Source of the DNA: a virus
Virus record (IMG/VR): IMGVR_UViG_3300035670_000170
Coordinates: 4,977-68,976 of that record
Length of the DNA: 64,000 bases
Reading direction: 5' to 3' (one strand)
The notes beneath the pieces are model-generated. The model ran no database searches and was not told the origin of the DNA. It saw only the letters and a program-made list of their open reading frames with translations. The position numbers and the translations under genes are program-made. Of the stretch, positions 3,744 through 63,496 are shown piece by piece. Each line of letters opens with the position of its first letter. Position 1 is the stretch's first letter.

Positions 3744-3786
3744 GGGGGATAAACGCTATAAATACGCCACAAGCCCCCAGTTAGCC
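3744..3786 (+). other. conserved array-head site (attI-like), copy 1
   Basis: GGGGGATAAACGCTATAAATACGCCACAAGCCCCCA-GTTAGCC. Confidence 0.8.
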
Positions 3787-3792
3787 GTAATT

Positions 3793-4059
3793 CTAATCAC
3801 GCCAAGTGATGTGCATTGCTTCTAACTTATCGCCAAGTAACGAACTGCCATAGTTTTCAAACTTCATTTTTAGTGAAGGATATACTTCTAAATCATTTGG
3901 GCATTGTATTTTAAATGGTAGCTTTCGTTTATCTTCTGAAATTTGTAATGCTTCTAAAATGAAGTCATTCAAACTTTTGTCTTCGGAAGAAGAACTACGG
4001 ATAACAACGTATTGCTGAACATTGCCATCTTCATCTGTTATTTGAACTTTGTATTCCAT
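3793..4059 (-). CDS. cassette hypothetical protein (paralog of 61130..61393)
   Basis: 88 aa, closely similar to the array D copy. First ~20 codons lie inside the att hairpin. Confidence 0.85.
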   Translation of the reverse strand: MEYKVQITDEDGNVQQYVVIRSSSSEDKSLNDFILEALQISEDKRKLPFKIQCPNDLEVYPSLKMKFENYGSSLLGDKLEAMHITWRD

Positions 4060-4132
4060 ATCAACTTTTTATTTTAAATTAAATATTTGTGCTTCTAAAT
4101 TGGCAACGTCAGCAATACGCAAAACGTTAGGC
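3999..4132 (+). other. attC-like hairpin A1
   Basis: GGATAAC; arm CGTATTGCTGAACATTGCCA; loop; arm TGGCAACGTCAGCAATACG; AAAAC; GTTAGGC. Confidence 0.8.
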
Positions 4133-4140
4133 ACAATTAA

Positions 4141-4317
4141 TTAAGCAGCATTCGGCCAATCATAATAAATTTGCTTAGTTCGCCAAAACCAAAAAGTGTA
4201 ACCGAAGCATTCGACAAACATCGCTTCAAATTTCTTTTCACCTGTTTTGTAATTTGTGTGGAAAAACATTTTAGAGTTCCACTTTTTGTTTTTTGATTTG
4301 TACTTTTTAAAAACCAT
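4141..4317 (-). CDS. cassette hypothetical protein (58 aa)
   Basis: MVFKKYKSKNKKWNSKMFF...DWPNAA, fills cassette A2, below the ORF-track cut-off. Confidence 0.65.
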   Translation of the reverse strand: MVFKKYKSKNKKWNSKMFFHTNYKTGEKKFEAMFVECFGYTFWFWRTKQIYYDWPNAA

Positions 4318-4335
4318 TTTCGTAAAATTAACTGT

Positions 4336-4429
4336 GCCTAACAGCGTATATGTGCAATACGCTTCAAGCGGTTAGTAATAATTTAAAGTTTTGTCATTGC
4401 GTACTGCACATATACGCAAAACGTTATGC
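4336..4429 (+). other. attC-like hairpin A2
   Basis: GCCTAAC-A-GCGTATATGTGCAATACGC...GCGTACTGCACATATACGC-AAAAC-GTTATGC. Confidence 0.85.
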
Positions 4430-4464
4430 CCAGAATTGACGTTACCAAATCGGGCGCGGCAAAA

Positions 4465-5121
4465 TTACTTGTCCCCGTCAGGATTCCATTCTTCTTTCTT
4501 AGCCCTTCCTTGTACAACCCATTCTAATGGGTCACGGTTAATATCCCTGCCGAACACAACACCAAACTTTCTGTACGCACCCTTATAGGCTAAACTCTCT
4601 GCTAACGGTAGCTTCTTTTGAAGTTCAAAGGGGTCGCGCATATCCTCAAGTAACGCACATCCAACGCCCATGTGTGACACGCCCGATTTGCTATCGCACA
4701 CCTCTGCCACCACCACCACGTTACCTACCTCTACGCGCCATTCCACAATGCGTGACGACCGAAAAGGCATCAGCACGTCGGCAGTGTCCTCAAGGTACTG
4801 TATTGGCACGTAGTTGACGTCGGGTAGCTGCGGGTGCTTGCGTATTGCGTCAGGCGGCACAGGGGAAGAAAATGATTGTGAAACCTTTTCCTCTACGGGC
4901 TGGTCAACCTTTTCTTTTGGCTGCTTATTTTTGGGTGTAATCAGTTTTATTTCGTCTATCTCGATTGACCAACGGGAGCCTGTGCCGCCTGACTTTGGGT
5001 TGTCCCAAGAAACATCTACGTCTTTTTTGGACACTAAGGCGACTGTCCCTGTACCGCCCTTGCGTATAAACTCATTACCAACAAGGCTCTTAACCCTGTC
5101 GCCTACCTTAAAATTGCTCAT
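4465..5121 (-). CDS. Sak/Rad52-like ssDNA annealing protein with N-terminal KVGDRV domain
   Basis: YVPIQYLE...GVG...AESLAYKGAYRKFGVVFGRDINR resembles Rad52/Sak, adjacent to an exonuclease. Confidence 0.65.
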   Translation of the reverse strand: MSNFKVGDRVKSLVGNEFIRKGGTGTVALVSKKDVDVSWDNPKSGGTGSRWSIEIDEIKLITPKNKQPKEKVDQPVEEKVSQSFSSPVPPDAIRKHPQLPDVNYVPIQYLEDTADVLMPFRSSRIVEWRVEVGNVVVVAEVCDSKSGVSHMGVGCALLEDMRDPFELQKKLPLAESLAYKGAYRKFGVVFGRDINRDPLEWVVQGRAKKEEWNPDGDK

Positions 5122-5137
5122 GTTAAACTATTGTTAA

Positions 5138-5878
5138 TTAAACTTCAATTACTTCTTCAATGGGTGTGTAGCTGCGCTTATCACACAGTTTGTTGAACAG
5201 GCAGTCAGCACACACGTTACAGTCCTTCGTGGGTATAGGCTCAAACTTGTTAACCATGTAGTCACGCACTTGGTCAATGATACGGTAGTGGTTTTCCATC
5301 GCTTCACTGCTGATACGGGCGCGGATAAACTTTATCCACCCGCTTTTGCCGAACACCAGATAGTAAAACGGGCGCACCACCCCATCGCGCAGGTAAGAAC
5401 CAAGGGTATAGTGTACAGCCTGTGTATGGTCAAGTGCATCAGGGACGCCCCACCCATACTTACCCTTGTCGTCTTTACGTGATGCAGTGTACTTAATGTC
5501 AATGATAACACTACTACCTTCGTAATCAGCAATGCAGTCAAGGTGAAACACCAAGTCCCCTTCAATGATTTCCGGCTGTACCTCTGTCACCTTTATGCCC
5601 ATCTTTGGTAGTGTGTTTTGCTTGTGGTACTTCGCCTGTGATACGGCTTGTGCTGCCCATGCGTAGCTTCCTTCCCCACGCTGTTTCTTTGGCGGCTCGA
5701 TCGTCTGGTGTCCCCGTGCGGCACCTATTAGTTCCTGTTCAAAGAGTAGGCCGGAGTACATTGCCTCTGTTGGCTCCGACCGTAGGCCGTCGATGTACTT
5801 TAGCTTGAGCATATAACGGCATCCGTCACGGTCTTGTACGTCCTTTATTAGGGACTGACTTATTAGTAGTTTATTCAT
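5138..5878 (-). CDS. PD-(D/E)XK nuclease (Cas4/RecB-like exonuclease)
   Basis: SQS..K...C, LDCI...IIDIK, Q...Y, C-terminal CxxC..C.....C cluster. Confidence 0.8.
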   Translation of the reverse strand: MNKLLISQSLIKDVQDRDGCRYMLKLKYIDGLRSEPTEAMYSGLLFEQELIGAARGHQTIEPPKKQRGEGSYAWAAQAVSQAKYHKQNTLPKMGIKVTEVQPEIIEGDLVFHLDCIADYEGSSVIIDIKYTASRKDDKGKYGWGVPDALDHTQAVHYTLGSYLRDGVVRPFYYLVFGKSGWIKFIRARISSEAMENHYRIIDQVRDYMVNKFEPIPTKDCNVCADCLFNKLCDKRSYTPIEEVIEV

Positions 5879-5920
5879 GTTGATTTGTTTTTTTGTTGCG
5901 CCCGTTTTGGTAAGGGAATC

Positions 5921-5963
5921 GGGGGCTAAACGCTATAAATACGCCACAAGCCCCGTGTTAGCT
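5921..5963 (+). other. conserved array-head site, copy 2
   Basis: GGGGGCTAAACGCTATAAATACGCCACAAGCCCCGT-GTTAGCT. Confidence 0.8.
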
Positions 5964-6034
5964 GCAAGTGCTACATTGGTACTTCGTATAAAACTTTGGT
6001 GTTCAAAAATTTTATATAAAAAGCCACCGCACTT

Positions 6035-6754
6035 TTAAAACAATTCATATTCTGTTTTTAATAATTTATCTGTAACAAAATCAAAACAACTTTTATCAAT
6101 ATCACCTGCAATGTAATTTCTGCCTTCTTTTTTTGCTGTTACAAGCATATTGCCACCACCCATAAAGGGGTCTATTATTAGCCCTCCTTTTGGAGAGAAG
6201 CATCTAATCAATATTTGACATAGTTCTATTGGCTTTGTTGGTATATTACCCCCATCTTCTCTTTTTCTTTCTATGTTTAATAAATCATTCAGCCAAATCC
6301 CTTCTTTGCTATTAAAAAATGGGTTTGATTTTTCTTTATATCCATCAAAAACTAAATACCCTTTATCTCCTTGTTTGGTATTTGGGCTATACGGCATACC
6401 CGTTCTCGGATTAAAAAAGAAACTTTTTCCGCAACACCAAAATATTTTATGATACGAGTATGTAGGCATTTTATTTGATACCCAGTTACCTGTTTTTATA
6501 TACTTCCATATTATCTCATTCCTAAAACAATAGTTTATTTGGTTTCTTAAATCGTAATCATACGGTTTCTTTGTAAACATTAGAATATTGCCAGTTTCTT
6601 TTAACACTCTAAAACATTCACTTACCAAGCCATCGGCAATAAGTTTTACCCAATCTTGATAATTTGGGTCTAAAAATATTAAGTCGGCAGAATTATCATC
6701 AACTCCTGCAAGTAGTTCAAAACAGTCTTTTTGGTATATTTTATTTAATTCCAT
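6035..6754 (-). CDS. DNA N6-adenine/N4-cytosine methyltransferase (beta class)
   Basis: DLIFLDPNY (motif IV-like), PTKP..L, DPFMGGG (motif I). Start moved to MELNKIY. Confidence 0.88.
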   Translation of the reverse strand: MELNKIYQKDCFELLAGVDDNSADLIFLDPNYQDWVKLIADGLVSECFRVLKETGNILMFTKKPYDYDLRNQINYCFRNEIIWKYIKTGNWVSNKMPTYSYHKIFWCCGKSFFFNPRTGMPYSPNTKQGDKGYLVFDGYKEKSNPFFNSKEGIWLNDLLNIERKREDGGNIPTKPIELCQILIRCFSPKGGLIIDPFMGGGNMLVTAKKEGRNYIAGDIDKSCFDFVTDKLLKTEYELF

Positions 6755-6800
6755 CGTTTTTTTCTTTTTGTTTTTCTGTTTTCGTTTTAAATTGTGCATC

Positions 6801-6846
6801 CTACTAAACTAATCGGGTCTGCATATATTATCTGATATTTCTTCAT
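6801..6846 (-). pseudogene. 5' remnant of an MT-A70-type methyltransferase
   Basis: Reads MKKYQIIYADP then stops; compare MKYEIIYADP at 63384. Confidence 0.5.
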
Positions 6847-6867
6847 GTTTCTAAATTAAATTCGTAA

Positions 6868-6896
6868 ATAAATACGCCACAAGCCCCCAGTTATAG
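6868..6896 (+). other. partial array-head site, copy 3
   Basis: ATAAATACGCCACAAGCCCCCA-GTTATAG, right half only. Confidence 0.75.
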
Positions 6897-7049
6897 GTAA
6901 TAAAATTTGCTAAGTACCCAACATCCTGTAATTATGATGCAACTTACTGTTACGGTTCCTATTCCTATCCATACCAAGTCTCTGTTGGTTACATAAGGTT
7001 CATACCATTCACCACCTTCTCCTTTATCAAGCCATTCTTTTAATTTCAT
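6891..7049 (-). CDS. cassette small membrane protein (52 aa)
   Basis: MKLKEWLDKGEGGEWYEPYVTNRDLVWIGIGTVTVSCIIITGCWVLSKFYYL; its TAA stop lies in the GTTA core. Confidence 0.65.
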   Translation of the reverse strand: MKLKEWLDKGEGGEWYEPYVTNRDLVWIGIGTVTVSCIIITGCWVLSKFYYL

Positions 7050-7067
7050 ATCGCAAATTTTACATAC

Positions 7068-7122
7068 CTATAACAGCAAATAAGAAACATTAAAACGATT
7101 GCTTATTTGCAAAACGTTATGC
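7068..7122 (+). other. attC-like hairpin B2
   Basis: CTATAAC-A-GCAAATAAG...CTTATTTGC-AAAAC-GTTATGC. Confidence 0.8.
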
Positions 7123-7131
7123 GTAATAAGA

Positions 7132-7371
7132 TTAATCGCAGTCTTGACATTTATAGTCTTGTTTGATTATACCCAATTCCACGGGGCAATCTTCATAACC
7201 ATATTTACAACCATGCTCAAAACAGCAATGTGTTCTATGTACTCCCCAACGCTCTTGTGGAATTGACGTTGTTGCAGACTTACTACGCACAACACGTAAT
7301 AAATCCAATTGCTCACTTTCGTACTGTTTAATGAGTGTCTTTGCTTCGTTGTATTGTTCTTCTGTTATCAT
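7132..7371 (-). CDS. cassette Cys/His-rich hypothetical protein
   Basis: 79 aa with HRTHCC..HGCKYG..DCPV. N-terminus is encoded inside the att hairpin. Confidence 0.75.
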   Translation of the reverse strand: MITEEQYNEAKTLIKQYESEQLDLLRVVRSKSATTSIPQERWGVHRTHCCFEHGCKYGYEDCPVELGIIKQDYKCQDCD

Positions 7372-7419
7372 AGTTTTGTTCTTTTAATTCGCAACTGTAT
7401 TTATTACCAACCGTTACCA
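7287..7419 (+). other. attC-like hairpin B3
   Basis: GCACAAC; GTAATAAATCCAATTGC...GCAACTGTATTTATTAC; CAACC; GTTACCA. Confidence 0.78.
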
Positions 7420-7434
7420 AATCGGGCGATACAA

Positions 7435-7965
7435 TTAAGATTCGCTGCTTTCAAGCCCCTTCAGGTAGTCTTGGTAACGGGTGTATGCTTCAGTTAATTC
7501 GTCAGGTTGAAAATCAAGTTGATGAATGTACTCTTTGTCACACCACTCCCCAAACGTCATTACCTTATTAAGTTCACTCACCTTAACGTGTCCAACGGTT
7601 CCGTCGCAAAACTGGACAAGCACAAGTGGTTCGCTAATAACACCCACCCTTGCGCCTTTGTAGGTTGCGTCGTAATATATTTCAGCGGGTTCGGGCTTCT
7701 CTTGTTTGGGGAGTTCGACGTACGATTCGTCTACCCAATCAGTAGGCGTTCCGGTTTTCTCCGGCTCGATGGGTTGGAGATACTCCTGTCGCTGACCAAA
7801 CCTCAGGCTACTACTTTGGAAACGATTGTATATCATGTCCTGCGAATCCCAAATTACCCACGGAGTTGATTGATCGTCCTCAGCTACCGTTCCGGTTGCT
7901 CCGTACTTTAACACACCGTTGTCGACAATGTTACGCACCCTGTCGCCTTTCTTAAATTTTGCCAT
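7435..7965 (-). CDS. hypothetical protein with N-terminal KKGDRV domain
   Basis: 176-aa ORF whose N-terminus is shared with 4465..5121 and 12848..13528. Confidence 0.75.
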   Translation of the reverse strand: MAKFKKGDRVRNIVDNGVLKYGATGTVAEDDQSTPWVIWDSQDMIYNRFQSSSLRFGQRQEYLQPIEPEKTGTPTDWVDESYVELPKQEKPEPAEIYYDATYKGARVGVISEPLVLVQFCDGTVGHVKVSELNKVMTFGEWCDKEYIHQLDFQPDELTEAYTRYQDYLKGLESSES

Positions 7966-8275
7966 TTTCTTTGATTTTACTTGTTCTACGTTTACGATTG
8001 CCTTTGGGTTGCGAAAATTCCGAAATACTTTTCACCTTTCCAACTTTTATTAGGTCGAAAGTTCTTTTCTGTCGGTTATTCATTCGCCTAACGGATGAGT
8101 GGTGGATGAGGATAGGCGTAACGATTTGCCCGTCATCCTTTTGGTACTGTGGCATAGCAAAACGGGCGCCCACCCAAAAATAGTCCGGCATATTCTCATC
8201 TCCCATTGGTATGACAACACACCCATTGACGTGTCTTACTTCTATCACGTCTACTTCTATTACGTAGTATGCCAT
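7952..8275 (-). CDS. hypothetical protein
   Basis: Start moved to MAYY, directly after the repeated leader. Confidence 0.65.
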   Translation of the reverse strand: MAYYVIEVDVIEVRHVNGCVVIPMGDENMPDYFWVGARFAMPQYQKDDGQIVTPILIHHSSVRRMNNRQKRTFDLIKVGKVKSISEFSQPKGNRKRRTSKIKENGKI

Positions 8276-8355
8276 AGCTTGAATGGTTAAAATTGACACG
8301 TTTGCACTTGGTTCTTTTCACTATCATAAAAAGCTGTCCGGTGTTAGCGGACAAC
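8273..8355 (-). repeat. ~85-bp duplicated leader (second copy 9454-9543)
   Basis: CATAGCTTGAATGGTTAAA.TTGACACGTTTGCACTTGGTTCTTTTCACTATCA...AGCTGTCCG..CGGACA.CT occurs at both loci. Confidence 0.9.
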
Positions 8356-8499
8356 TGCGGGGGTCGGGGCGCCCGATTAGGCAATGGATTCTTCGATTAG
8401 CTGAATCGCAATTTGTACAAGTTTAGCACGTGCCGCCCTTGCCTGATTTTACTTCTTCAATCTTTTTCATTGTTCTGTGTGTTTTTCAGTTAATTACCC

Positions 8500-11792: not shown

Positions 11793-12847
11793 GGTTTCTA
11801 TTTGTTTATTTGTTTTACGTTGTTTTGTGCCGTTGTGTTACCAAATCGGGCGCCTCAATTAAAAGAGTAAGCATACCTTTTAGCTTCCATTGCAAGCCCC
11901 CATATAGTAGGGGTGAATTTGTATCGCTTCATGGTTTCTGTGTTTTTAATTATACTTCTTGTACGGCATCAGCGGAAACAAGGTTACAAAAAAATAGCAA
12001 AAAATAACCACGAATTTTATGCCGCTGACTGCCAATGAGTTACAGCACGTTGACGAACAAAAAAATTTGAGTTGTCTGTTTTTTTCGTCCAAGCCGTTTG
12101 TAAATGGCTAATTTTCAAACTTTGGCACGGTTTTATTTTTGTGCCGTTGTGTTACCAAATCGGGCGCGACAAAGAAAGGGAAACCACATAGGCACCAACA
12201 GTAGAGAAAGGAACAGACCAACAAAGGTAGCACACACACCAACGGGCAAAGCATGGATGAATTTGGCACGGTGGCTATCCCGTCCTTTAATCCTTTCAAT
12301 CTGCCGGAATTACTTGGCAAACGCCGTGAAACGGGCAACGAACAAACGGTGCGGGTGCCTGTGTTTTGGTTGTGCTGTCCCGTAATATGCATTATGTTAA
12401 ATTGTGGCGCAATTAGTCGGGCTGCGCGGCCTGTTAACTGCCTGAACGTCACCGGACGTACAAAATTTTCCGGTATGGGGCATGGGGTGGCGGAAACGGT
12501 TTTCCTTTGGCCGACCCACCCCCCGATACATACATACAACCCCACCCCGAAGCCTGCGTTGACCAGTTCTAAACGCCAGTGGTTTACAGCCACTTAGGGC
12601 AAACACCAAAAATTTGACTACTATGTATCAACCACTTGCGTATCCATTTCTGCTGGACTAAAATTATTTGTGCGATATTGGCTTTTGTGTTGTTGTTTAT
12701 TTGGCAAAAATGCGAAGTGTTCGCGGGGCGGTACAAATTATGTTTGGTTTGTTTGGGTATTTTGTGGTTAGGCGATGATTTTTGTAAAAATTGGTGTAAC
12801 CTTGTTGTGTGGTGATGCGTAATAATGGGAAACAAAAACACAGAAAT

Positions 12848-13528
12848 ATGACACCGAAGTTTAAGAGGGGAGATAGGGTGAAGAATCTTGTCGAGGATGG
12901 CACAATAAAAAGGGGCGCAACAGGAACAGTGGACGACGACGGGTCTTGCACTCCGTGGGTGATTTGGGATAGTCACGAAATGTTATACTTCGTGATAGGT
13001 GTAGGAATGCGTCGCTATCAAGCAGAATCCGCGCTTGAACTGATTGAGGCGGATGACAAGTCCCTTGCGTTAACCAAAAAACACAGAACAATGAAAAAGA
13101 TTGAGCAGGTAAAAGCAGGCAAGGCTGCTATTGAGAACACCGGAACGGTGGATGAGTTGAACAAGGTGTTAAAGTATTGTTGGCCGGATGATTTAGAATC
13201 CGCCGGGGTTGGTCGTTATTATTACGATGATGAAGGGTGGTGGAGGTCGTATAACCGCAACCCACTTGCAACCTCATACACCGTTCAGGAACTACTCGCG
13301 GAAATTGAGGGTGGTGTTGGCCTTCCAGTTCAGGAGTTGACTTTGCCCACCTTAACCAAGCGGGAGTATTTCGCCTTACAGGGCTTGCTTTCGATATACG
13401 ACACCATAGATATTGTCCCTAATAAAAGCAACGTCGAATACATGGCTAAACTTGCCGTATCAGCCGCCGACGCTCTTATTGCAGAACTTGAAAAATACTC
13501 GGTCAACGCCAATAGCAATGCCCGCTAA
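12848..13528 (+). CDS. composite hypothetical protein (KRGDRV domain plus further segments)
   Basis: Start MTPKFKRGDRV; a second A-rich leader and ATG at 13091; TAA stop lies in a CGCTAAC core. Confidence 0.7.
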   Translation: MTPKFKRGDRVKNLVEDGTIKRGATGTVDDDGSCTPWVIWDSHEMLYFVIGVGMRRYQAESALELIEADDKSLALTKKHRTMKKIEQVKAGKAAIENTGTVDELNKVLKYCWPDDLESAGVGRYYYDDEGWWRSYNRNPLATSYTVQELLAEIEGGVGLPVQELTLPTLTKREYFALQGLLSIYDTIDIVPNKSNVEYMAKLAVSAADALIAELEKYSVNANSNAR

Positions 13529-13563
13529 CTGGTGGCTTGTGGCTACCAGTATCGTTTAGCCCC
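13523..13563 (-). other. conserved array-head site, copy 4 (inverted)
   Basis: Minus strand GGGGCTAAACGATACTGGTAGCCACAAGCCACCA-GTTAGCG. Confidence 0.75.
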
Positions 13564-14612: not shown

Positions 14613-14636
14613 TTTTGTCGCGCCCGATTTGGTAGG

Positions 14637-14678
14637 GGATAACATAGGGCTTGTGGCTACTGGATGCGTTTAGCCCCC
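14637..14678 (-). other. conserved array-head site, copy 5 (inverted, apparently empty)
   Basis: Minus strand GGGGGCTAAACGCATCCAGTAGCCACAAGCCCTAT-GTTATCC, followed 2 nt later by TACCAAATCGGGCGCG. Confidence 0.78.
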
Positions 14679-14720
14679 GAATATCGCATATCGCGATACG
14701 CGATAATTTAATCTAACTAT

Positions 14721-15332: not shown

Positions 15333-15842
15333 ATGTTTATACGCAACGGTAAAAACGGCGACGGGGACAAGGAAAAGAAGAAGAACCGGAAGGACGCAAA
15401 GAAGAAGGGTGGCAGCGTAAGCTGCAAGCCCGGAAAGGTATGTGAACCTAACCCCAAGGTAAAAGAGGAAGACGTTAAAGGTACTGGCACAAAAAACAAG
15501 GGACAAAAGTTTTTCGTTGTAACAAAGGATGTTGACGTAACCAGACCTTCATCTGATGACGTGCGGTTTCTTGGCGGTGGCTCAAGGAATCCCCAAAGCG
15601 TGTATTCATCGAAAGCTGAATCATTAAGGCCAAATAGGAAAAGTGCGCGTGTTTACAAAAGGGTTGTCAAAAGTGAACTGAAAAAAGAAACGCGCAAGGC
15701 ATCGGACGTGTCGCCAGCGACAGGAAGCGCAACGGTTACAATACAAAAAAAGCGAATATATGGCGCTGGTTCGGGCAAGGAATCAAAACTTGGTCGCGTA
15801 AAAACAACAAAGTACAAGGCGCGGGGCGAAAGAAAAAGGTAA
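15333..15842 (+). CDS. Lys/Arg-rich hypothetical protein
   Basis: 169 aa, strongly basic, TACTTTTG upstream at 15309. Confidence 0.7.
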   Translation: MFIRNGKNGDGDKEKKKNRKDAKKKGGSVSCKPGKVCEPNPKVKEEDVKGTGTKNKGQKFFVVTKDVDVTRPSSDDVRFLGGGSRNPQSVYSSKAESLRPNRKSARVYKRVVKSELKKETRKASDVSPATGSATVTIQKKRIYGAGSGKESKLGRVKTTKYKARGERKR

Positions 15843-25164: not shown

Positions 25165-25570
25165 GCGCCCCGACAAAATATCGGACAAGGACTGGTATGA
25201 AATGCTTGAAACGTTTTTGTTTCAGATTTCATCGGCACAGCCATTGGCTAAACTGTACCGTGGTATCAACAAGCAGTTAGAGGACTTGGCGGCTATGCTT
25301 AATGAGGACATTGAGATTGAGGACAAGGATGATGATGGTAATGATAGGATACTCAAGGTAAAGCTAATGAGTTACAAGAGTATGTCTGCGTCCAATGACA
25401 AAGCCGTTGAGCGCTTTATCAAGATTGTTGACAGCCTCCCAAAGCTAATTGAAACACAGTCCATGCTTGAGAACAAGTTAAGCCCCGAAACGATGGAGCG
25501 CCTTGACGCCCTTAACACGGACGAAAATTCAGGTGTACTTGAAAAAGCCTTAAAGATTACAAACGGATGA
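25157..25570 (+). CDS. hypothetical protein (terminase small subunit candidate)
   Basis: Helical 137-aa protein overlapping the TerL start; call is positional only. Confidence 0.4.
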   Translation: MIKRPDKISDKDWYEMLETFLFQISSAQPLAKLYRGINKQLEDLAAMLNEDIEIEDKDDDGNDRILKVKLMSYKSMSASNDKAVERFIKIVDSLPKLIETQSMLENKLSPETMERLDALNTDENSGVLEKALKITNG

Positions 25571-27687: not shown

Positions 27688-27774
27688 TTTTGCCGCGCCC
27701 GATTTGGTAACGTTTTGCGGTTATCGGGGGCTAAACGCTATAAAACTACCACAAGCCCCGTGTTATGTGCCATT

Positions 27775-27966
27775 TTAAGAACACTCATCACACAATACAC
27801 TATCTCTTTTGAAAGTCCAACCTTTATGAATTAACTTTTCAGCAAAGTAATAATCATCTGTGTTGTAGTCTTTCTCAACCTTTTTACACTTTTGGCACTG
27901 TATTGAACATTCAACCAGTATTGCTTCTTGGACTTTCTCAAAAATCAGTTCTTCTTTCTTTGTCAT
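27775..27966 (-). CDS. cassette zinc-ribbon-like small protein
   Basis: CQKC...GW......LCDEC; start MTKKEE. Confidence 0.7.
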   Translation of the reverse strand: MTKKEELIFEKVQEAILVECSIQCQKCKKVEKDYNTDDYYFAEKLIHKGWTFKRDSVLCDECS

Positions 27967-27984
27967 AATCTGAATAAAAACGGC

Positions 27985-28077
27985 ACATAACAAAGGCTAA
28001 AAAGCATAGCCTGACAAGTTAGTGCTAATTTTAAAGCGTGATTAATAGGCTACGCTTCTTAGCCTCGACCGTTGGGC
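27985..28077 (+). other. attC-like hairpin C1
   Basis: ACATAAC; AGGCTAAAAAGCATAGCCT...AGGCTACGCTTCTTAGCCT; CGACC; GTTGGGC. Confidence 0.82.
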
Positions 28078-28081
28078 GCAA

Positions 28082-28294
28082 TTAAAAGCGACCCGTAAAC
28101 AGAACATTCGGAATATCACGATAATTTACCGTGTGTTCGTTGATGTATTTAGCGGCATCATTTTGTGCTTCACAAGCACCTTCTTGCCAGCATTTTTCAG
28201 CAAACTGACGAAGTATCTCTACACTTGCCGCTAAATTCTCACTTTGCATTAATTGTTCTGCAATCTCTTGTAATTCTTGTTCTTTGTTATCCAT
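28082..28294 (-). CDS. cassette hypothetical protein
   Basis: 70 aa, fills cassette C2. Confidence 0.7.
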   Translation of the reverse strand: MDNKEQELQEIAEQLMQSENLAASVEILRQFAEKCWQEGACEAQNDAAKYINEHTVNYRDIPNVLFTGRF

Positions 28295-28314
28295 TTCGTT
28301 TGAAAATTAACCGC

Positions 28315-28409
28315 GCCCAACAGCGGTTTAGCGCAATGCCGCTGAGAGTGCAGTGGTTAAAATTAAGTTTGTAATATGCGGCACTGCGCCAAGCCGCAAA
28401 ACGTTACAC
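28315..28409 (+). other. attC-like hairpin C2
   Basis: GCCCAAC; GCGGTTTAGCGCAATGCCGC...GCGGCACTGCGCCAAGCCGC; AAAAC; GTTACAC. Confidence 0.85.
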
Positions 28410-56607: not shown

Positions 56608-57078
56608 ATGGCAGTTACTATAAATAATCAGACGGCATTATACGCCAATGTGAAAGACACTTTTCCGCAGAGCGAGTCCCTTACGGGCACTGCTTCCACT
56701 ATGAGCAGAAAAGATAGGCTTATTGGCAGCGGTACTGCTTTTGTTTCTGAACTTGAAACTGGTGACTTTATTTGGGACACTGTTAATGATGAATTGTTAA
56801 AGGTTGTTAGCATAGAGAGCGACACTGAGTTGACCCTTAGTGGAGAGTTTAGTAACGCACTGAGTGGCGCTACTATAAAAAGAGTTCCGAGAATACGTTA
56901 TCAGTCTTTCAGTTATTTAATTGACAGTTCAAGCGGTGAAGAGATTGACGGTATATTGATGCCTGATGGTGCAAGTGCTACATTTGCCATTTCAGACCAT
57001 TATTCTAATATGGGCAATCCAATTATTATTGATTCAACTGTTAATGATGGAAATGTAATTATTTCATTCTTTGCTTAA
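56608..57078 (+). CDS. putative tail/fibre-associated protein
   Basis: G.GTAF.SEL..GD.I......KV.SI.SDTELTL beta module. Confidence 0.6.
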   Translation: MAVTINNQTALYANVKDTFPQSESLTGTASTMSRKDRLIGSGTAFVSELETGDFIWDTVNDELLKVVSIESDTELTLSGEFSNALSGATIKRVPRIRYQSFSYLIDSSSGEEIDGILMPDGASATFAISDHYSNMGNPIIIDSTVNDGNVIISFFA

Positions 57079-57866
57079 TGGGGGCATTTGGGAAAAGCGG
57101 TAGTGGTATTTACAAGATGGGTGGTGATGGTGCATCGTCCGTTGATGTGAATGTTAATAGTTCTCTTGAGGGTTCTGTTTCAAGTGCATCTCCTATTGAC
57201 ATTGATATTACTGATGGAAGTAGCCCTGTAACCCCTGATGCTGTAAGTGTTGTTGGCAATACGGTAACTATTGAAGTTCCTGCGGCTGCTGCGCCAGTTG
57301 GTGCTACGCTTATGAAAACGGGGCAAACTACTTCTTATCGTACTGGCGATGATGGGGATTTGCAGGCAGGCAGAGCAACAGACATCACCACGCTGGCCAG
57401 CAATAACCCCTTTGGTAATACAGACAGGTTTACCGATGAGTTAGGGGGGCAAACCTACACTAACGACATCGTGATTGATTGGAGCACTTATGATGGCAGT
57501 ACGGTGTTGGGCTGGCGAAGAACTATTAACGGAACTGGTATAAGCTGGAACAATGCGATTGATGGAGCTTTATTAGTTAGCATAGGCACATTTACAAGCG
57601 GATGGAAATTGCCAAATTTGAACGAAATGGCAAGTTTGTTCAATGCTTCAAAAAATATGTTTGGCAGTACTGGCCCGTCCCCGTGGACAAGCGTAATTGC
57701 AGGCGGTAGCTTATGGACATCCACCACCTCTTATAGCAGCACGGCCACAGCGTTACGTTTGAATACTTCAACGGGAGAATTTGATAGGTCGTCAAAGACC
57801 AATTCATCACAACATTTTTATATGCCCTGCCGCACCTTCACAGTAACAGGAACAACACTTACATAA
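57078..57866 (+). CDS. DUF1566/Lcl C-type-lectin-like fibre protein 1
   Basis: KTGQTTSY..GDDGDL..G, ID..T..GW, W..A, GWKLPNLNEM, WTST. Confidence 0.8.
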   Translation: MGAFGKSGSGIYKMGGDGASSVDVNVNSSLEGSVSSASPIDIDITDGSSPVTPDAVSVVGNTVTIEVPAAAAPVGATLMKTGQTTSYRTGDDGDLQAGRATDITTLASNNPFGNTDRFTDELGGQTYTNDIVIDWSTYDGSTVLGWRRTINGTGISWNNAIDGALLVSIGTFTSGWKLPNLNEMASLFNASKNMFGSTGPSPWTSVIAGGSLWTSTTSYSSTATALRLNTSTGEFDRSSKTNSSQHFYMPCRTFTVTGTTLT

Positions 57867-58101: not shown

Positions 58102-58166
58102 TTTTTATAGTTTACACAAGTATATTTTTTTTTACAAAAGATTATACTTATTTTATTCTTCGATTT

Positions 58167-58793
58167 ATGGGGGCATTTGGGAAAAGCGGTAGTGGTATTT
58201 ACAAGATGGGTGGTGATGGTGCATGCCCTGAAAGGTATAATTCTGCCAACCCTTACAAGACGGGACAAACCACATCGTATGTAAGCAACGATGATGGCGA
58301 TTTAGAACGTGGTAGAGGTTCGGATTTCACAACGCTTGACTTTAATAACCCGTTTGGAAACACCAATAGATTTACCGACACGCTGGGCGGTCAGACGTAT
58401 GCGAATGATATTGTTATTGATTGGGCGACTACCAACTACATAGCGGAAACAGTTATCGGTTGGTATCGGGTAGTTCAGGGTGGTGCAGGAGTTAATTGGA
58501 CTACGGCAATGGCAGCACAACCAGTAACGGCAGAGGGGTACAATGATTGGTACGTGCCCAATAAGAATGAATTTACTTTAATAATTAGCAGCGAGAATAG
58601 TATAAACTACAATCCTTTTAGTTTAACCCATAACTTGTGGACATCAAGTTCGCGCGATGCAAGTGCGGCAAGAGTTTATCAAGAAACACAAAAAGATTTA
58701 CAAAGTCAAACAAAAACATTGACATTGCTAAATGGTAACGCAATAGGCTACATATTACTACGTTACTTCACCTTCACAGAATTAGGACTATGA
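58167..58793 (+). CDS. DUF1566/Lcl C-type-lectin-like fibre protein 2
   Basis: Same motifs (KTGQTTSY, GYNDWYVPNKNE, LWTSS); first 58 nt identical to protein 1. Confidence 0.8.
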   Translation: MGAFGKSGSGIYKMGGDGACPERYNSANPYKTGQTTSYVSNDDGDLERGRGSDFTTLDFNNPFGNTNRFTDTLGGQTYANDIVIDWATTNYIAETVIGWYRVVQGGAGVNWTTAMAAQPVTAEGYNDWYVPNKNEFTLIISSENSINYNPFSLTHNLWTSSSRDASAARVYQETQKDLQSQTKTLTLLNGNAIGYILLRYFTFTELGL

Positions 58794-59578: not shown

Positions 59579-59606
59579 CATGGAATAGCCTAAAGTAAAT
59601 AGATTG

Positions 59607-59807
59607 ATGGACGGGTTTTGTAAAATTACTATTCAGACCGAGGACGTGCAGAAAGCGCAGCGGATGCTTGCTGTTGACGACGTGTTTATTAAGTTGTGGG
59701 AAGTGTATCAAATCACGACGTGGAACGACCTACGACCAGACCAACAGGTGGAACTGATTAGGGAACACATCAACATAGAACTTTTTGAGCAATACCATTG
59801 GACATGA
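59607..59807 (+). CDS. hypothetical protein
   Basis: Short ORF with ATGA overlap to the endolysin. Confidence 0.55.
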   Translation: MDGFCKITIQTEDVQKAQRMLAVDDVFIKLWEVYQITTWNDLRPDQQVELIREHINIELFEQYHWT

Positions 59808-60286: not shown

Positions 60287-60537
60287 TGGTTAGAATGAAT
60301 TTACCGATGTTTGTGCTGCTGCTTGGTGCGGTATTCGTGTTGGCTGGTGTTCTTATCGGCAAGGGATGTTCACGCACGGAAACGCCACAATACGACTTTA
60401 GGCGGGTGGATTCACTACAACGGGTAGTGGACGACAGGGGTAAAGAGATTGAACGCCTGAAGGGGCTTCTGATTGAAAGGATAGACACGCTTCCACGCGA
60501 TGTTCAGGACAGCCTTATCGACGTGTGGTTGAGGTGA
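60286..60537 (+). CDS. spanin-like membrane protein
   Basis: N-terminal TM, Cys and short coiled coil, directly after the endolysin. Confidence 0.45.
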   Translation: MVRMNLPMFVLLLGAVFVLAGVLIGKGCSRTETPQYDFRRVDSLQRVVDDRGKEIERLKGLLIERIDTLPRDVQDSLIDVWLR

Positions 60538-60568
60538 TACACCGAAGCCAGTATCGTTGAACGGGTAG

Positions 60569-61069
60569 TTAGCCTTCATTGACCAACACACCGTCCGAAC
60601 CTCTACTTTTCTCCCTGTCAATAGCCCATTGCTTCATTGGTGGCTGCGGCTTGCCTTCCCTATATTCCTGTGAGTGTTTGCTACACACCGTCCAATATCC
60701 CGTGTCACGCCAACAACCGCCGCCGTTTGCGCCTTCTTGCTCACACCCTTCAACTTCGCACCACCCAAAATAAGGTTCTTGTTTTTCCTTCGAATCCGTC
60801 AATGAAAGGCTGACGTTAAAGGCCACAAGTTGCAAATGTGATACCTGTAACGTAGTTACATTCTCCATCACGTACCGTCCATTGAACGACCTCTTGTACT
60901 TCTTTTTCCAGCCGTTTTTAGAGTAACGCCTGTGTTCTGATGTCAACACCGTGCGGGTGATTTTCACAACCTTTGAGGTGTCGTCGATTAGAACCAAGTA
61001 AGCCAACCGCATTGGCTCGCCGAATGTCCCCTCTGTGCGTATTGTCTTGAAGTCTATTTTCTTTACCAT
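60569..61069 (-). CDS. chimeric hypothetical protein (C-terminal half is a cassette)
   Basis: 166 aa; C-terminal Cys-rich half bounded by GTTAGCCTTCATTGAC (60568) and GTCAATGAAAGGCTGAC (60814). Confidence 0.65.
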   Translation of the reverse strand: MVKKIDFKTIRTEGTFGEPMRLAYLVLIDDTSKVVKITRTVLTSEHRRYSKNGWKKKYKRSFNGRYVMENVTTLQVSHLQLVAFNVSLSLTDSKEKQEPYFGWCEVEGCEQEGANGGGCWRDTGYWTVCSKHSQEYREGKPQPPMKQWAIDREKSRGSDGVLVNEG

Positions 61070-61129
61070 GTTATTGATATTCGGGGCTAAACGCTATAAA
61101 TACGCCACAAGCCCCCAGTTAGCCGTAAT

Positions 61130-61393
61130 TCAATCACGCCAAGTAACGTGCATTGCTTCGAGTTTATCTCCGAGTATTGGCGAACCATAGTTTTCAAACT
61201 TCATTTTAATTGAAGGATGAACTTCTAATCCGTTTGGGCATTGTATCATAAATGGTAACTTTCGTTTATCTTCACTAATCTGTAATGCTTCTAAAATGAA
61301 GTCATTCAAGGATTTTGGAGAAGAAGAACTACGGCTAACATTGTATAAATGAACATTGCCAGCTTCATCGGTTATTTGAACTTTGTATTCCAT
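61130..61393 (-). CDS. cassette hypothetical protein (paralog of 3793..4059)
   Basis: 87 aa, MEYKVQITDE...WRD. Confidence 0.85.
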   Translation of the reverse strand: MEYKVQITDEAGNVHLYNVSRSSSSPKSLNDFILEALQISEDKRKLPFMIQCPNGLEVHPSIKMKFENYGSPILGDKLEAMHVTWRD

Positions 61394-61463
61394 ATCAAGT
61401 TTATTTTTAAGTTTAACATTTGTGTTTTAAAATGGCAACGTCATTTATACCTTGCCGTTATAC
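61333..61463 (+). other. attC-like hairpin D1
   Basis: GGCTAAC; GTATAAATGAACATTGCCA...TGGCAACGTCATTTATAC; CTTGCC; GTTATAC. Confidence 0.8.
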
Positions 61464-61472
61464 GCAAATAAA

Positions 61473-61802
61473 CTAAACCCCACCCGCATTATTTTCGTTG
61501 TTCTTTTTAGCACTTTCAATAAGCGTGTTCATTCCCGCACTTAGTTGTTCAAATGTTTGAAGTTGTGAAACCAACAATTGAAGGTCTCCTATCATTGCAT
61601 TTACGCCTTCCAATGAAGTGAAAATTCTAAACTCTCCAAGTTCGTGTCCCTTCAAAATTTCGCCTTTTTTATTCACTTCATATTTTGGTTCAGTACTTAG
61701 TAGTATCAATTCAACTTGTGGTTTCAAATTATTGGTTTCATAGTTGATTGAAAAATTTGTGTTACTTCTAAATGTAACTAAGTGTTTTTTTGTTGTTGCC
61801 AT
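61473..61802 (-). CDS. cassette hypothetical protein
   Basis: 109 aa, between GTTATACGCAAATAAACTAAAC and GTTTAGTTTATCAGCGTATAAC. Confidence 0.75.
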   Translation of the reverse strand: MATTKKHLVTFRSNTNFSINYETNNLKPQVELILLSTEPKYEVNKKGEILKGHELGEFRIFTSLEGVNAMIGDLQLLVSQLQTFEQLSAGMNTLIESAKKNNENNAGGV

Positions 61803-61870
61803 TTTTTTGTGTTTTATTTAATTATTATTATTTAGTTTCTAATTGCCAACGCTTCGTTTAGTTTATCAGC

Positions 61871-61925
61871 GTATAACAGCAAATAATCAACATTAAAACG
61901 ATTGCCTACCTGCAAACCGTTAGGC
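61871..61925 (+). other. attC-like hairpin D2 (degenerate)
   Basis: GTATAAC-AGCAAATAATCAACATTAAAACGATTGCCTACCTGC-AAACC-GTTAGGC, related to hairpin B2. Confidence 0.7.
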
Positions 61926-62004
61926 AACATTAAAACGAGCCAACGCACAGACAAACGCACTTGCCTAACAGCGTATAAACTCAATTTAAAATTAACCCAA
62001 CGCA

Positions 62005-62235
62005 CTATTCACAGTATTCATCACACCACGGATGATGACCATGATAGCATCCGCAGTCATCACAACATTCGTGGCTATCGTCATAGTCAGGGTCTTCTTC
62101 GTCTGGTGCATTTCCAAAAGCATCACAAATGCAAGTAGTATTTCGGCAATTTTCACAAAACAATCCAACTCTTTTCATTGATTCAACAGCATTATTAACA
62201 GATGCTATCTCATCTTTTGTTAATCCATTTTCCAT
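62005..62235 (-). CDS. Cys/Asp-rich small protein
   Basis: 76 aa with multiple CxxC/CxC. Confidence 0.7.
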   Translation of the reverse strand: MENGLTKDEIASVNNAVESMKRVGLFCENCRNTTCICDAFGNAPDEEDPDYDDSHECCDDCGCYHGHHPWCDEYCE

Positions 62236-62247
62236 TTTAATCTATAT

Positions 62248-62430
62248 TTATTTTACCATTTTTCTGATGTCAGGAGAATGGTTGTTCAACCAGTATTTTG
62301 CAATCGAATATCGTTCCTCTTTTGTTTTAGTATTCATCGCTATTCCTTTATTGTCTCGGTACTTTGCAAAGTGCATTTCCTCTAATGAAGTCATTTCAAC
62401 TCCGTAAACCATTTTATTTTTTGCCATCAC
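62248..62430 (-). CDS. hypothetical protein
   Basis: 60 aa, starts right after the hairpin arm. Confidence 0.6.
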   Translation of the reverse strand: MMAKNKMVYGVEMTSLEEMHFAKYRDNKGIAMNTKTKEERYSIAKYWLNNHSPDIRKMVK

Positions 62431-62478
62431 TATTTAATTTTAAACTAAGTTTATACGCATACCGTTATCGGAAATATT

Positions 62479-62703
62479 TTAATTTCCAACGCACACACCT
62501 TCACCTTTTACAGATTGATTAACAAGTATATTACCTCTTGAACTTAATTGAATGTCACGCAAATTGATTGGAATTTCAATTGTATCATATCCAATATTCA
62601 CATCAGATATATCATGGTTTAAGTCTTGATAAGACATTAAGGCAACCAATTTGCCGTTTTTCGTTGAGATATTAATAATCTCCATGTTAGTTAAATTTTT
62701 CAT
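62479..62703 (-). CDS. cassette hypothetical protein
   Basis: 74 aa, between GTTATCGGAAATATTTT and AAAATACTATCCGATAAC. Confidence 0.65.
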   Translation of the reverse strand: MKNLTNMEIINISTKNGKLVALMSYQDLNHDISDVNIGYDTIEIPINLRDIQLSSRGNILVNQSVKGEGVCVGN

Positions 62704-62751
62704 TCTATTTATATTTATTTGTTAATAATTCCTACGCTCTAAAATACTATC

Positions 62752-62816
62752 CGATAACAGCATCTTGGCGAAAATACGTACATATCCAAGGTTCGCCAAG
62801 TTGCGTTCCGTTATAC
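62752..62816 (+). other. attC-like hairpin D4
   Basis: CGATAAC; GCATCTTGGCGAA...TTCGCCAAGTTGC; GTTCC; GTTATAC. Confidence 0.8.
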
Positions 62817-62826
62817 GCAATTTGTT

Positions 62827-63384
62827 TTAATTTTTTTTTCCCTCCCCTCCAAGAGTTATAGAGTTTTCGCATTCATTACCCCAAGCATCCCATCCTAAAA
62901 CATTCTGCCTTGCAAATAATTCTACTTTATTTTGAGTTGGAAACATTGCTTCTATTCTTGCTCTTATTTCGTTTGGTTTAGCAGAATGTTTACCTCTCAT
63001 TTTAGATAAAAATTGCCTTACATTCCTTGCGCCTCTCGGAGTTGGTATTGTGCCACGCTTTCCTACCAAGCAAATTTCACATTCACTCATTGTATAATGT
63101 CCTGGATTTGTTCTTTGCTTGTGCCATATAAAAGCTATTGTGGCATATTTGAAGCCCCAACTTTCCATCACTTCAATACCTTATTTTAACATCGGGCTTA
63201 CAACCCACAAAAACAGCATACAATTTTTATCTGAAATACTTTGCACTTCTAATGCTTTTAAGTCTTTCAATGTCATTGTACTATAATGTGTATTCAATTC
63301 TCCATTAAGTATTGATGTTTTAGCCAAACATTCCTTTGTGTTGTATTCCCAAGCTGGATCAGCGTATATTATTTCGTATTTCAT
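62827..63384 (-). pseudogene. MT-A70 family adenine methyltransferase with an in-frame TAA
   Basis: IIYADPAW, LFLWV, WGFKY.T..F.W.K, E.CL.G..G, HSAKP, ELFAR, GWD.WGNE. The two ORFs are in the same frame, split by TAA at 63181-63183 (MLK*GIEVMESWG). Confidence 0.85.
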
Positions 63385-63441
63385 ATTTTAGTTATTAAGT
63401 TTAAAAGTTTTCCAACCGCACAAAAAATTAAAACAAACAGC

Positions 63442-63496
63442 GTATAACAGCAGCTATGCGCCATTAAAACGAGCGCATAGCTGCGGCACGTTAGGT
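63442..63496 (+). other. attC-like hairpin D5
   Basis: GTATAAC-A-GCAGCTATGCGC-CATTAAAACGA-GCGCATAGCTGC-GGCAC-GTTAGGT, perfect 12-bp stem. Confidence 0.85.

Follow-up and report, generated by a model that had tools for sequence, protein, structure and literature searches.

How does a phage that encodes no recombinase come to carry small genes arranged like the cassettes of an integron? The question is raised by IMG/VR virus record IMGVR_UViG_3300035670_000170, a complete record of 68,976 bp (a phage of ~69 kb with direct terminal repeats of 103 nucleotides, nt), of which positions 4977-68976 were analysed as one stretch of 64,000 nt (the window; coordinates below are those of the window unless another sequence is named). 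An earlier note, made from the sequence alone, had recognized four AT-rich cassette arrays here, and proposed an integron-like exchange system that differs from canonical integrons and uses a recombinase of the host or of a distant locus. Cassette turnover, the absence of the integron integrase IntI and a candidate recombinase in other genomes support this proposal. We consider it likely that the four loci are integrase-less mobile cassette arrays of an integron-like system of Bacteroidota and their phages, served in trans by a Xer-like enzyme. Only this phage is integrase-free, not the system as a whole.

Array grammar, end pairing and cargo

All four arrays are on the plus strand, at 3744-4468 (array A), 5921-7428 (B), 27726-28405 (C) and 61083 to ~63861 (D). 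They were located as claimed earlier, except that array D runs past 63496, where it had been thought to end. The claim that they are AT-rich and share one grammar also stands: the GC content is 0.36 at two array stretches (6001-8000 and 62001-64000), compared with 0.42-0.51 elsewhere, and every array follows the order head, GTT, cassette, AAC, 1-2 nt, hairpin, 5 nt, GTT. There are several heads in the genome, as noticed before. We identified four full copies, each ending straight at GTT, and one partial copy, along with two inverted copies (14636-14679 and 13513-13543) that had not been listed.

Arrays A-D have one to four hairpins each and no integrase. Between the junction cores are either hairpins of 35-75 nt or remnants of 17-18 nt. 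The earlier count of eleven hairpins is approximate, as we find seven compact junction hairpins, one with arms that enclose ~470 nt, two arm remnants (4108-4125 and 61440-61456) and the stem-loops of the heads. The spacers are strongly unequal: each of the 7 compact hairpins has 1-2 nt before it and 5 nt after it (1-3 and 5-6 nt in the earlier note). A covariance model of the hairpin (R1) finds 6 of the 7 compact hairpins at E<=2.4e-9, all on the plus strand. It misses the hairpin of cassette C1 and makes one long match (4002-4129) that is likely spurious.

The ends of a cassette are complementary to each other. We scored the first 24 nt against the last 24 nt of 11 cassettes, with the invariant cores excluded. 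The mean score is 10.45 for a start paired with its own end and 5.76 for a start paired with the ends of other cassettes, and the sum over own pairs was reached in 1 of 20,000 permutations (p=5e-5). The pairing spans 9-27 nt. Two end pairs that had been given as examples are present at 27762/27991 and 28071/28321, where 0.26-0.29 matches are expected by chance. Pairing is weak in A1, D1 and D3. In 7 of the 9 junctions scored, the end of a cassette pairs better with its own start than with the start of the next cassette, in agreement with the earlier remark that the two cores of one hairpin mostly do not match.

The hairpin stems covary. A scan of IMG/VR for two junction ends separated by a gap of 25-55 nt returned at least 119 stretches, and a stem of >=8 bp is present in 60 of 82 pattern matches at the IMG/VR loci that were examined. 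The stemmed matches represent 31 distinct hairpins, 27 of which were aligned with 4 from the window. Over 12 stem pairs in these 31 aligned hairpins, 90.3% of cells are paired compared with 65.1% in shuffles, none of which, out of 500, attains the observed figure. This percentage is partly circular because the hairpins were chosen for having a stem. The count of double-sided stem changes does not have this circularity: there are 92 such cells where 31.2 are expected, and controls with slid partners are 24-36% paired. One class of hairpin combines a variable 12-bp stem with an 11-nt loop that is identical throughout. At stem pair 4, 13 of the 31 hairpins are unpaired, but clear extrahelical bases were not identified among them. 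A looser hairpin scanner that was tried first made 31 calls on the wrong strand and 29 on the right one, and was dropped in favour of the strict grammar and R1.

The two strands of the hairpin are not equivalent. Wobble pairs number 17 on the complement of the hairpin-frame strand and 5 on the frame strand itself, and 19 of the 31 hairpins are more stable on the complement. In this phage, the strand that folds better is the sense strand of the cargo. Better folding of the bottom strand has also been reported for attC sites (PMC5027507).

The cargo is inverted. All 13 cassette-filling open reading frames (ORFs) are on the minus strand, antisense to the polarity of the sites, as the earlier note had stated. 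The hairpin of a phage cassette is thus upstream of its gene, and the gene reads towards the head. Two cargo genes could be named, an N6_N4 DNA methyltransferase in cassette B1 and an MT-A70 methyltransferase in D6. The latter is split into an N-terminal part of 67 amino acids (aa) and a C-terminal part of 114 aa; a homologue on another contig (L151) is a single ORF. Eight other cargo ORFs have no match in Pfam or PHROGs. This cargo (two DNA methyltransferases and small ORFans) is consistent with anti-restriction or accessory roles.

Cassette turnover and an associated recombinase

The gene content of the arrays is not fixed. A scan of IMG/VR with the head sequence matched only one record, a 36-kb virus record (G001) in which the region of head D is 98.9% identical to that of the window, the region past the array is 94% identical, and the late genes to the left are also in common. 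Nothing is alike between the G001 head and position 63862 of the window, where homology resumes. The array of G001, unrelated to array D between flanks of 94-100% identity, holds different cassettes, two of which look methyltransferase-like by eye.

We also observe the insertion or deletion of a single cassette at GTT. Two contigs from different samples (L077 and L080) have flanks that are 100% identical and differ by one 748-bp cassette, present in L080 only, with the same 7-nt core at both of its junctions. The same cassette occurs in different contexts. A protein 83% identical (aa) to that of cassette C1 is encoded on an otherwise unrelated contig (L063), where the DNA homology extends from GTT to AAC and the hairpin that follows has the same architecture and different stems. 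The cargo of D2 and D6 likewise recurs beside hairpins in other contigs.

Direct repeats and inverted ends might instead point to miniature transposons with terminal inverted repeats, or to IS200/IS605-type elements mobilized by a Y1 HUH enzyme. The terminal repeats of 9-27 nt, the 7-nt direct repeat that flanks the L080 insertion and the asymmetric, strand-specific hairpins fit such elements. However, the phage has no match to Y1_Tnp, and what flanks the insertion is not a variable target duplication but the conserved core that all junctions share. The cassettes are also concatenated head to tail in arrays that occur beside a tyrosine recombinase. We regard movement as transposons as highly improbable.

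In four runs of one study, Logan contigs end at the repeated heads (e.g., at 3783 and 5960/5974), and alternative continuations, each seen in a single contig, begin exactly at three positions: 6890, ahead of the GTT of B2; 7075, following its AAC; and 4120. These breakpoints are weak support for turnover and are not independent (three of the runs may be source samples). One joint that skips 6912-7050 was rejected as an assembly artefact, as its shorter side is 22 letters long and lies between inverted repeats.

Accessory genes of phages can also be exchanged by homology. In T4-type phages, the shuffling of promoter-stem-loop modules has been proposed to occur by homologous recombination between the repeated modules, and the hairpins described here could similarly be promoter, terminator or RNA-processing stem-loops, with the cassettes shuffled by the homologous recombination of the phage. 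A hairpin is upstream of each cargo gene in sense orientation, one hairpin class has a conserved loop, and the same hairpin occurs with many different flanks. The heads are long enough for homologous exchange and are where the Logan contigs break, and the phage encodes a PD-(D/E)XK-like nuclease (just under the Pfam cut-off). However, reading of the hairpins by eye revealed no T run after the stems on either strand, homology between copies of a cassette ends exactly at the 3-nt cores, and the stems differ too much between cassettes for homologous exchange. The cassette-specific end pairing would have no role, and the fixed orientation beside a tyrosine recombinase (below) would be unexplained. 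Thus, we find regulatory modules a very unlikely explanation.

We confirmed that the phage has no integrase. A six-frame search of the whole genome with the Pfam models for Phage_integrase, Resolvase and Y1_Tnp (PF01797) gave nothing at E<=1, and there is no standard intI elsewhere in it. A candidate enzyme was identified in other genomes. A Flavobacterium metagenome-assembled genome (MAG) encodes a 347-aa tyrosine recombinase beside a single phage-type cassette (contig L139, 2585-4297), amid ordinary chromosomal genes. The neighbours include genes for a lipid A acyltransferase, a rhomboid protease and SIMPL-domain proteins. Homologues with 36-45% identity are encoded at eight hairpin loci (seven viral loci and contig L142). 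The profile of this family has no match in the genome of this phage, nor in G001 or in the Polaribacter phage P12002L discussed below.

The recombinases are Xer-like. Their best NCBIfam model is XerA (164-229 bits), whereas the integron-integrase model TIGR02249 is matched in two stretches with 145-208 bits, below its cut-off of 265. Columns of catalytic type are invariant in an alignment of eight sequences; we take these to be the catalytic R, K, H, R, H and Y. The recombinase aligns in one piece with the structure of an archaeal XerA (4a8e), and in two pieces with VchIntIA (2a3v), with query residues 172-199 (28 aa) where the VchIntIA chain has 174-243 (70 aa). The region that is shortened corresponds to the IntI-specific additional domain around patch III, described as integron-defining (PMC9668308, citing Messier and Roy 2001).

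A covariance model combined with a recombinase search, as the earlier note had suggested, shows that hairpin arrays adjoin this Xer-like tyrosine recombinase both in other phages and in Flavobacteriales chromosomes. In a profile-guided scan of IMG/VR, 79 loci were analysed out of the best 80 of 450 Xer-like loci (near-duplicates among them are L226/L231/L054, L195/L198 and L210/L213). These have 61 R1 sites at E<=0.1, of which 59 are on the strand opposite the recombinase, and all 51 sites at E<1e-3, in 19 loci, are upstream of the recombinase and on the opposite strand. With a separate scanner, hairpins were called at 19 of 25 loci whose recombinase is >=50% identical to the seeds (with >=1.5 kb of upstream DNA), compared with 2 of 31 loci below 50%; reversed sequences gave this scanner 53 calls, against 93 in total. 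The recombinase gene of these phages adjoins the array, reads away from it, and is next to a semi-conserved AT-rich site that ends in GTT. Between the start of the recombinase and the first cassette, an AT-alternating run ending in GTT is common to 8 of 11 loci, and all 11 align at the GTT. In 11 of 13 clear intervals the longest ORF runs in the direction of the recombinase and hence against the polarity of the sites, which is the cargo orientation of the window.

Chromosomal arrays were sought in 401 genomes sampled from the Flavobacteriales (the order of the Flavobacterium MAG in the NCBI taxonomy). A homologue of the recombinase at E<=1e-40, usually an ORF of 320-390 aa, is encoded in 111 of these. 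Presence in only this part of the genomes indicates that the recombinase clade is accessory. Among the 30 best chromosomal loci, six have an R1 match within 1.5 kb. Five of these loci were extended, and all have R1 matches, 27 of 27 on the strand of the recombinase and downstream of it; 18 further loci include six with a match at E<0.01, and again 10 of 10 such matches are on that strand and downstream. At one locus (G297:C54) there are 13 matches, 11 of which were confirmed by reading. The chromosomal counts are lower bounds because R1 was built from short phage hairpins. A whole-genome R1 search matched 8 of 151 genomes, scored 40 candidates per genome and missed a known array (in G136); it was not used as a measure of prevalence.

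The chromosomal elements, of ~125 nt, share with the phage ones their junction ends and the motif at the start of the next cassette, and their cassettes have own-end pairing of 10-14 nt. The recombinase reads into arrays of up to 11 or more elements (chromosomal loci L264, which is G297:C54:1-12500, L265, L263, L267 and L268). Cargo is sense-oriented in 13 of 14 clear intervals, and includes a GNAT acetyltransferase, a DUF4279 protein, a SUKH immunity protein and an AAA_21/DUF4435 protein. In canonical integrons, a sense-oriented gene precedes its attC and reads away from attI. As chromosomal cargo has the canonical sense orientation, the inverted architecture is a feature of the phage side.

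Arrays of this kind might be ordinary clusters of integron attC sites that are carried passively by the phage and recombined by a canonical IntI of its hosts. A CALIN (a cluster of attC sites lacking an integron integrase) is defined by at least two attC sites within 4 kb and no nearby IntI (PMC4889954). The cores of the window resemble the core and inverse core of integron sites, the sites form hairpins, and cassette-specific pairing of the ends is the scar that classically marks integron cassettes (for attC features, see PMC5027507). Moreover, one phage with arrays of this hairpin family is already in print as a CALIN: in the virulent Polaribacter phage P12002L, Qi et al. 2023 described a CALIN that holds two genes for methyltransferases, predicted two attC sites with HattCI and Infernal, and recombined one of them into attI1 with IntI1 (PMC9892861). 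In the methyltransferase region of P12002L (NC_028924), between minus-strand methyltransferase genes, we find AAC, 2 nt, a stem, the identical 11-nt loop, a stem, a spacer and GTT. Three R1 sites are present in that genome (35.7, 27.4 and 23.3 bits), and attC1 and attC2 of Qi et al. are probably among them. P12002L also has a phage-specific head of ~60 nt at two loci (29165-29236 and 37200-37265), each copy ending at the GTT of a methyltransferase or Mom-like cassette.

Several findings speak against a canonical IntI. True IntI was not found in 301 sampled genomes of the order, the likely host order (the best score is 145.5 bits and the cut-off 265), and the IntegronFinder 2.0 paper describes complete integrons as nearly unknown in Bacteroidetes. 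The recombinase that is associated with arrays does not have the IntI region (28 residues instead of the 70 of VchIntIA). The spacers of 1-2 and 5 nt, the conserved 11-nt loop of one class and the end pairing of up to 27 nt also set these sites apart. Finally, a scan of the Genome Taxonomy Database (GTDB), with one genome per species, found the hairpin with the 12-bp stem in 18 contigs, all 18 from MAGs and 15 labelled Bacteroidota, and in no isolate genome. We consider the action of a canonical IntI unlikely.

The chromosome-dimer resolvases XerC and XerD of the host could also act on the cores, as they do for Xer-exploiting elements or dif-flanked plasmid modules. Nearly all bacteria have Xer enzymes, and this would account for integrase-less arrays; the ends of the cassettes presumably resemble Xer half-sites. 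The associated recombinases are themselves Xer-like, both by profile and by comparison with solved structures. A dif-type site has two arms of ~11 bp around a central region of 6-8 bp, however, and the cores of a junction are 35-75 nt apart, with the hairpin between them. In addition, it is a dedicated, accessory recombinase clade (111 of 401 genomes) that is found beside the arrays in fixed orientation. The resident XerC and XerD are quite unlikely to be the enzymes involved.

The arrays and the genome that carries them

The phage genome consists of a long plus-strand block with the large structural genes, and a minus-strand block that spans the ends of the record and encodes DnaB, the PD-(D/E)XK-like nuclease and numerous small proteins. 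Close relatives are lacking. Searches with DnaB returned relatives at <=40% identity only and no close cultured phage, and neither a megablast of 24 kb against a phage collection nor a tblastn search with ORF 33640-35067 gave a match. More distant relatives, found via a 706-aa protein that is 38-39% identical, have a gap of 58-60 nt and no array at the place of array C. Thus, array C is not ancestral there (the comparison does not give its breakpoints). The promoters upstream of the structural gene in these relatives presumably have the -7 box of Bacteroidota.

Array A begins with a head (3744-3779) that is upstream of the minus-strand gene for DnaB (2317-3693) and ends directly at the GTT of cassette A1 (3780). 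Cassette A1 (3780-4125, AAC at 4105-4107) encodes an 88-aa protein of no known family (3793-4059, minus strand) and is a paralogue of D1 (84-86% identity). Its tail (4108-4125, 18 nt) is what remains of a hairpin 3' arm and spacer. Cassette A2 (4126-4422, AAC at 4340-4342) encodes 58 aa on the minus strand (4141-4317) and has a hairpin at 4344-4417 with arms of 19 bp, a spacer of 1 nt before and 5 nt after, and an R1 score of 46.7 bits. The distal end of the array (4423-4468) consists of GTT, a short piece and a copy of the backbone motif described below.

Head B (5921-5956) is upstream of the minus-strand nuclease gene (5138-5878). Cassette B1 (5957-6889) contains the N6_N4 DNA methyltransferase gene (6035-6799, minus strand; E 4.5e-21) and has the partial second head (6870-6889) in place of a hairpin. 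Cassette B2 (6890-7115, AAC at 7072-7074) encodes 52 aa (6891-7049, minus strand) and has an own-end score of 14.5. Its hairpin (7076-7110) has the conserved 11-nt loop and a 5-nt spacer, with an R1 score of 68.7 bits and a folding z of -2.58. Cassette B3 (7116-7428, AAC at 7409-7411; cargo of 79 aa at 7132-7371, minus strand) lacks a hairpin; a GTT at 7413, one base past AAC, is followed by the backbone motif.

In array C, which is between two plus-strand structural genes (25567-27687 and 28499-30934), the head is at 27726-27761. Cassette C1 (27762-28070, AAC at 27989-27991) encodes 72 aa on the minus strand, and its hairpin (27994-28065) has arms of 19 nt with 2 nt before and 5 nt after. Cassette C2 (28071-28405, AAC at 28319-28321; 70 aa at 28082-28294, minus strand) has a hairpin at 28323-28397 (R1 40.7 bits), followed by a spacer and the terminal GTT at 28403.

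Array D, the longest, has its head at 61083-61117 (98.9% identical to that of G001), upstream of the minus-strand ORF 60569-61069. Cassette D1 (61118-61456, AAC at 61437-61439; 87 aa at 61130-61393, minus strand) ends in a 17-nt tail without a hairpin. Cassette D2 (61457-61918, AAC at 61875-61877; 109 aa at 61473-61802, minus strand) has complementary ends of 22 nt (score 15) and a hairpin at 61879-61913, plus a spacer (R1 57.7 bits). D3 (61919-61969) is a 51-nt cassette with no ORF and complementary ends of 9 nt. D4 (61971-62463) has inverted 11-nt arms (61971-61981 and 62448-62458) around ~470 nt, then a 5-nt spacer; there are ORFs on both strands, and the minus-strand ones at 62005-62235 and 62248-62430 are protein-like, judged by composition only. 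Cassette D5 (62464-62809, AAC at 62756-62758; 74 aa at 62479-62703, minus strand) has a hairpin at 62760-62804 plus a spacer (R1 44.9 bits). Cassette D6 (62810-63489, AAC at 63446-63448) has the longest complementary ends (27 nt, score 20). It encodes the MT-A70 DNA methyltransferase in two minus-strand ORFs (63181-63384 and 62827-63171), and its hairpin (63450-63484, plus a spacer) scores 62.9 bits with R1, with a folding z of -3.77. D7 (63490-63537) has no ORF and is common to G001, whereas D8 (63538-63861, GTT at 63538; 105 aa at 63539-63856, minus strand), with an approximate right boundary, is not in G001.

Of the two inverted heads, both on the minus strand, that at 14636-14679 has its GTT abutting the backbone motif with no cassette between, and is thus an apparently empty head. 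Its orientation would make cargo co-directional with the local plus-strand genes. The other, a partial head with GTT at 13513-13543, is at the end of ORF 12809-13528.

The backbone motif is a 14-mer with 30 copies (<=1 mismatch) in the window, where 0.04 are expected (e.g., at 4443, 7415, 8805, 9226, 11839, 12153, 13565, 14621(-), 15255(-), 27696(-), 32738 and 48540). It is frequently found after stop codons in sense orientation, and inverted pairs flank array C, array A, ORF 15333-15842 and a terminator-like hairpin at 1140-1250. The core of the motif has the same TAAC/GTTA letters as the cassette junctions, and the motif may mark backbone sites where arrays insert. Two minus-strand genes just past the distal ends of arrays A and B (4465-5121 and 7435-7965) have weak N-terminal SH3_12 matches (E 0.006 and 0.002, under the cut-off) and may be paralogues.

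Two other repeats were identified in the window. An 80-nt direct repeat (57056-57135 and 58145-58224, 94% identity) covers the starts of plus-strand ORFs 57078-57866 and 58167-58793, paralogous late genes that are present in G001 too. A 49-nt inverted repeat (8437-8485 and 13076-13124, 90% complementary and 4.6 kb apart) brackets the switch between minus-strand and plus-strand gene blocks.

Proposed mechanism and relation to known systems

We infer that the paired ends, the spacers and the hairpin of a circular cassette would fold, as a single strand, into one long attC-like site. The enzyme would be a XerA/Xer-like tyrosine recombinase without the IntI-specific domain, and the crossover would be at the GTT after the 5-nt spacer, with the head as the array-proximal site. 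As this phage lacks the recombinase gene, the enzyme that inserts, excises or exchanges its cassettes would come in trans, either from the host chromosome or from a co-infecting phage. The phage-type cassette beside a chromosomal recombinase in the Flavobacterium MAG makes supply by the host plausible. Expression is presumably from promoters within the cassette.

A number of observations weigh against these interpretations. The insertion-point role of the head is the weakest link: the head folds no better than shuffles (z -0.14), it is unlike the integrase-proximal site of other phages, and the motif of that site is not found in the window beyond chance. Own-end pairing is weak in A1, D1 and D3, and A1, D1, B1 and B3 are without a full hairpin. 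The association with the recombinase is incomplete, given that no hairpin was found at 6 of 25 close integrase loci and that only 12 of the 30 best chromosomal integrase loci have an R1 match. Since this phage, G001 and P12002L encode no such recombinase, its action on their arrays is deduced from other genomes. Alternatively, the recombinase might be a lysogeny integrase of the ordinary kind whose gene happens to adjoin accessory regions, and the recombination of a P12002L site by IntI1 (Qi et al.) makes a canonical IntI another possible actor. Differences between two pairs of contigs (L058/L093 and L016/L082) are ordinary gene replacements in which no hairpin is involved. No recombination product, circle or enzyme activity was observed, and the sequencing runs with this DNA, possibly the source samples, were available as contigs only. 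The comparisons rest on metagenome contigs and MAGs, with hosts assigned from MAG labels.

More broadly, we lean slightly towards the view that Bacteroidota and their phages run a parallel integron, with a XerA/Xer-like enzyme free of the IntI domain, sense-oriented host cassettes (including defence-like genes), mirrored phage cassettes (e.g., DNA methyltransferases) that virulent phages would stock as well, several heads per phage genome and an enzyme acting in trans. If so, host and phage draw on one cassette-exchange grammar in their arms race, and the stockpiling of genes in cassettes has arisen, or has survived, outside the IntI clade. Cassette-based gene discovery would extend to a large phylum and its phages, and the turnover of small accessory and anti-restriction genes, also in integrase-free phages, would have a concrete mechanism that can be tested. 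The mirrored phage cargo and the sense host cargo offer a natural contrast for the study of strand choice and cassette expression, and the short hairpins with the conserved loop are compact candidate recombination sites for tools.

A literature search, from which subscription journals and supplements were outside, found only Qi et al. 2023 to bear on such a system. The P12002L CALIN is alike in its hairpin family, in minus-strand cargo that includes DNA methyltransferases, in the absence of an integrase, and in a phage-specific head at two loci. Qi et al. treat the sites as canonical integron components, and the accessible text does not describe a family in uncultured phages, the head, the mirrored cargo, a Xer-like recombinase or chromosomal arrays (PMC9892861). 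The candidate Xer-like recombinase for the arrays, proposed from sequence comparisons, is likely an addition of the present analysis.

The modules of T4-type phages, in which small accessory genes are each preceded by a stem-loop and hyperplastic regions vary among relatives, are similar in outline. They differ from the arrays described here, where breakpoints are at 3-nt cores, ends are paired, stems covary while their sequence diverges, and a tyrosine recombinase is associated. Xer-dependent elements and dif modules of plasmids likewise share features with this system (an enzyme of the Xer family, modules with inverted sites, and elements that lack a recombinase and could use the resident enzyme). 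However, the junctions here are long, hairpin-containing and head-to-tail, unlike 28-bp dif-like sites, and the accessory recombinase clade is a dedicated one.

The sedentary chromosomal integrons are another close likeness, and the placement of the sites with respect to the recombinase is as in an integron. Common to both are arrays of single-gene cassettes, AAC and GTT cores, pairing of a cassette's own ends, imperfect hairpins with unpaired spacers, a tyrosine recombinase at the proximal end of the array with a semi-conserved adjacent site, and chromosomal cargo of the type of the GNAT, SUKH and AAA_21/DUF4435 proteins. The better-folding strand is in both cases the complement of the site top strand (PMC5027507). 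In attC sites, the R and L boxes are split by a central spacer that does not pair, some bases are extrahelical and the terminal structure varies (PMC5027507), whereas one hairpin class described here has a conserved loop. The spacers are 1-2 and 5 nt, and end pairing extends to as many as 27 nt instead of 7. In contrast to sedentary integrons, phage cassettes carry inverted cargo, and the chromosomal recombinase reads into its array. Integrons are held to need the IntI-specific domain, considered their defining feature (PMC9668308), and it is this additional domain that the recombinase of the present system lacks.

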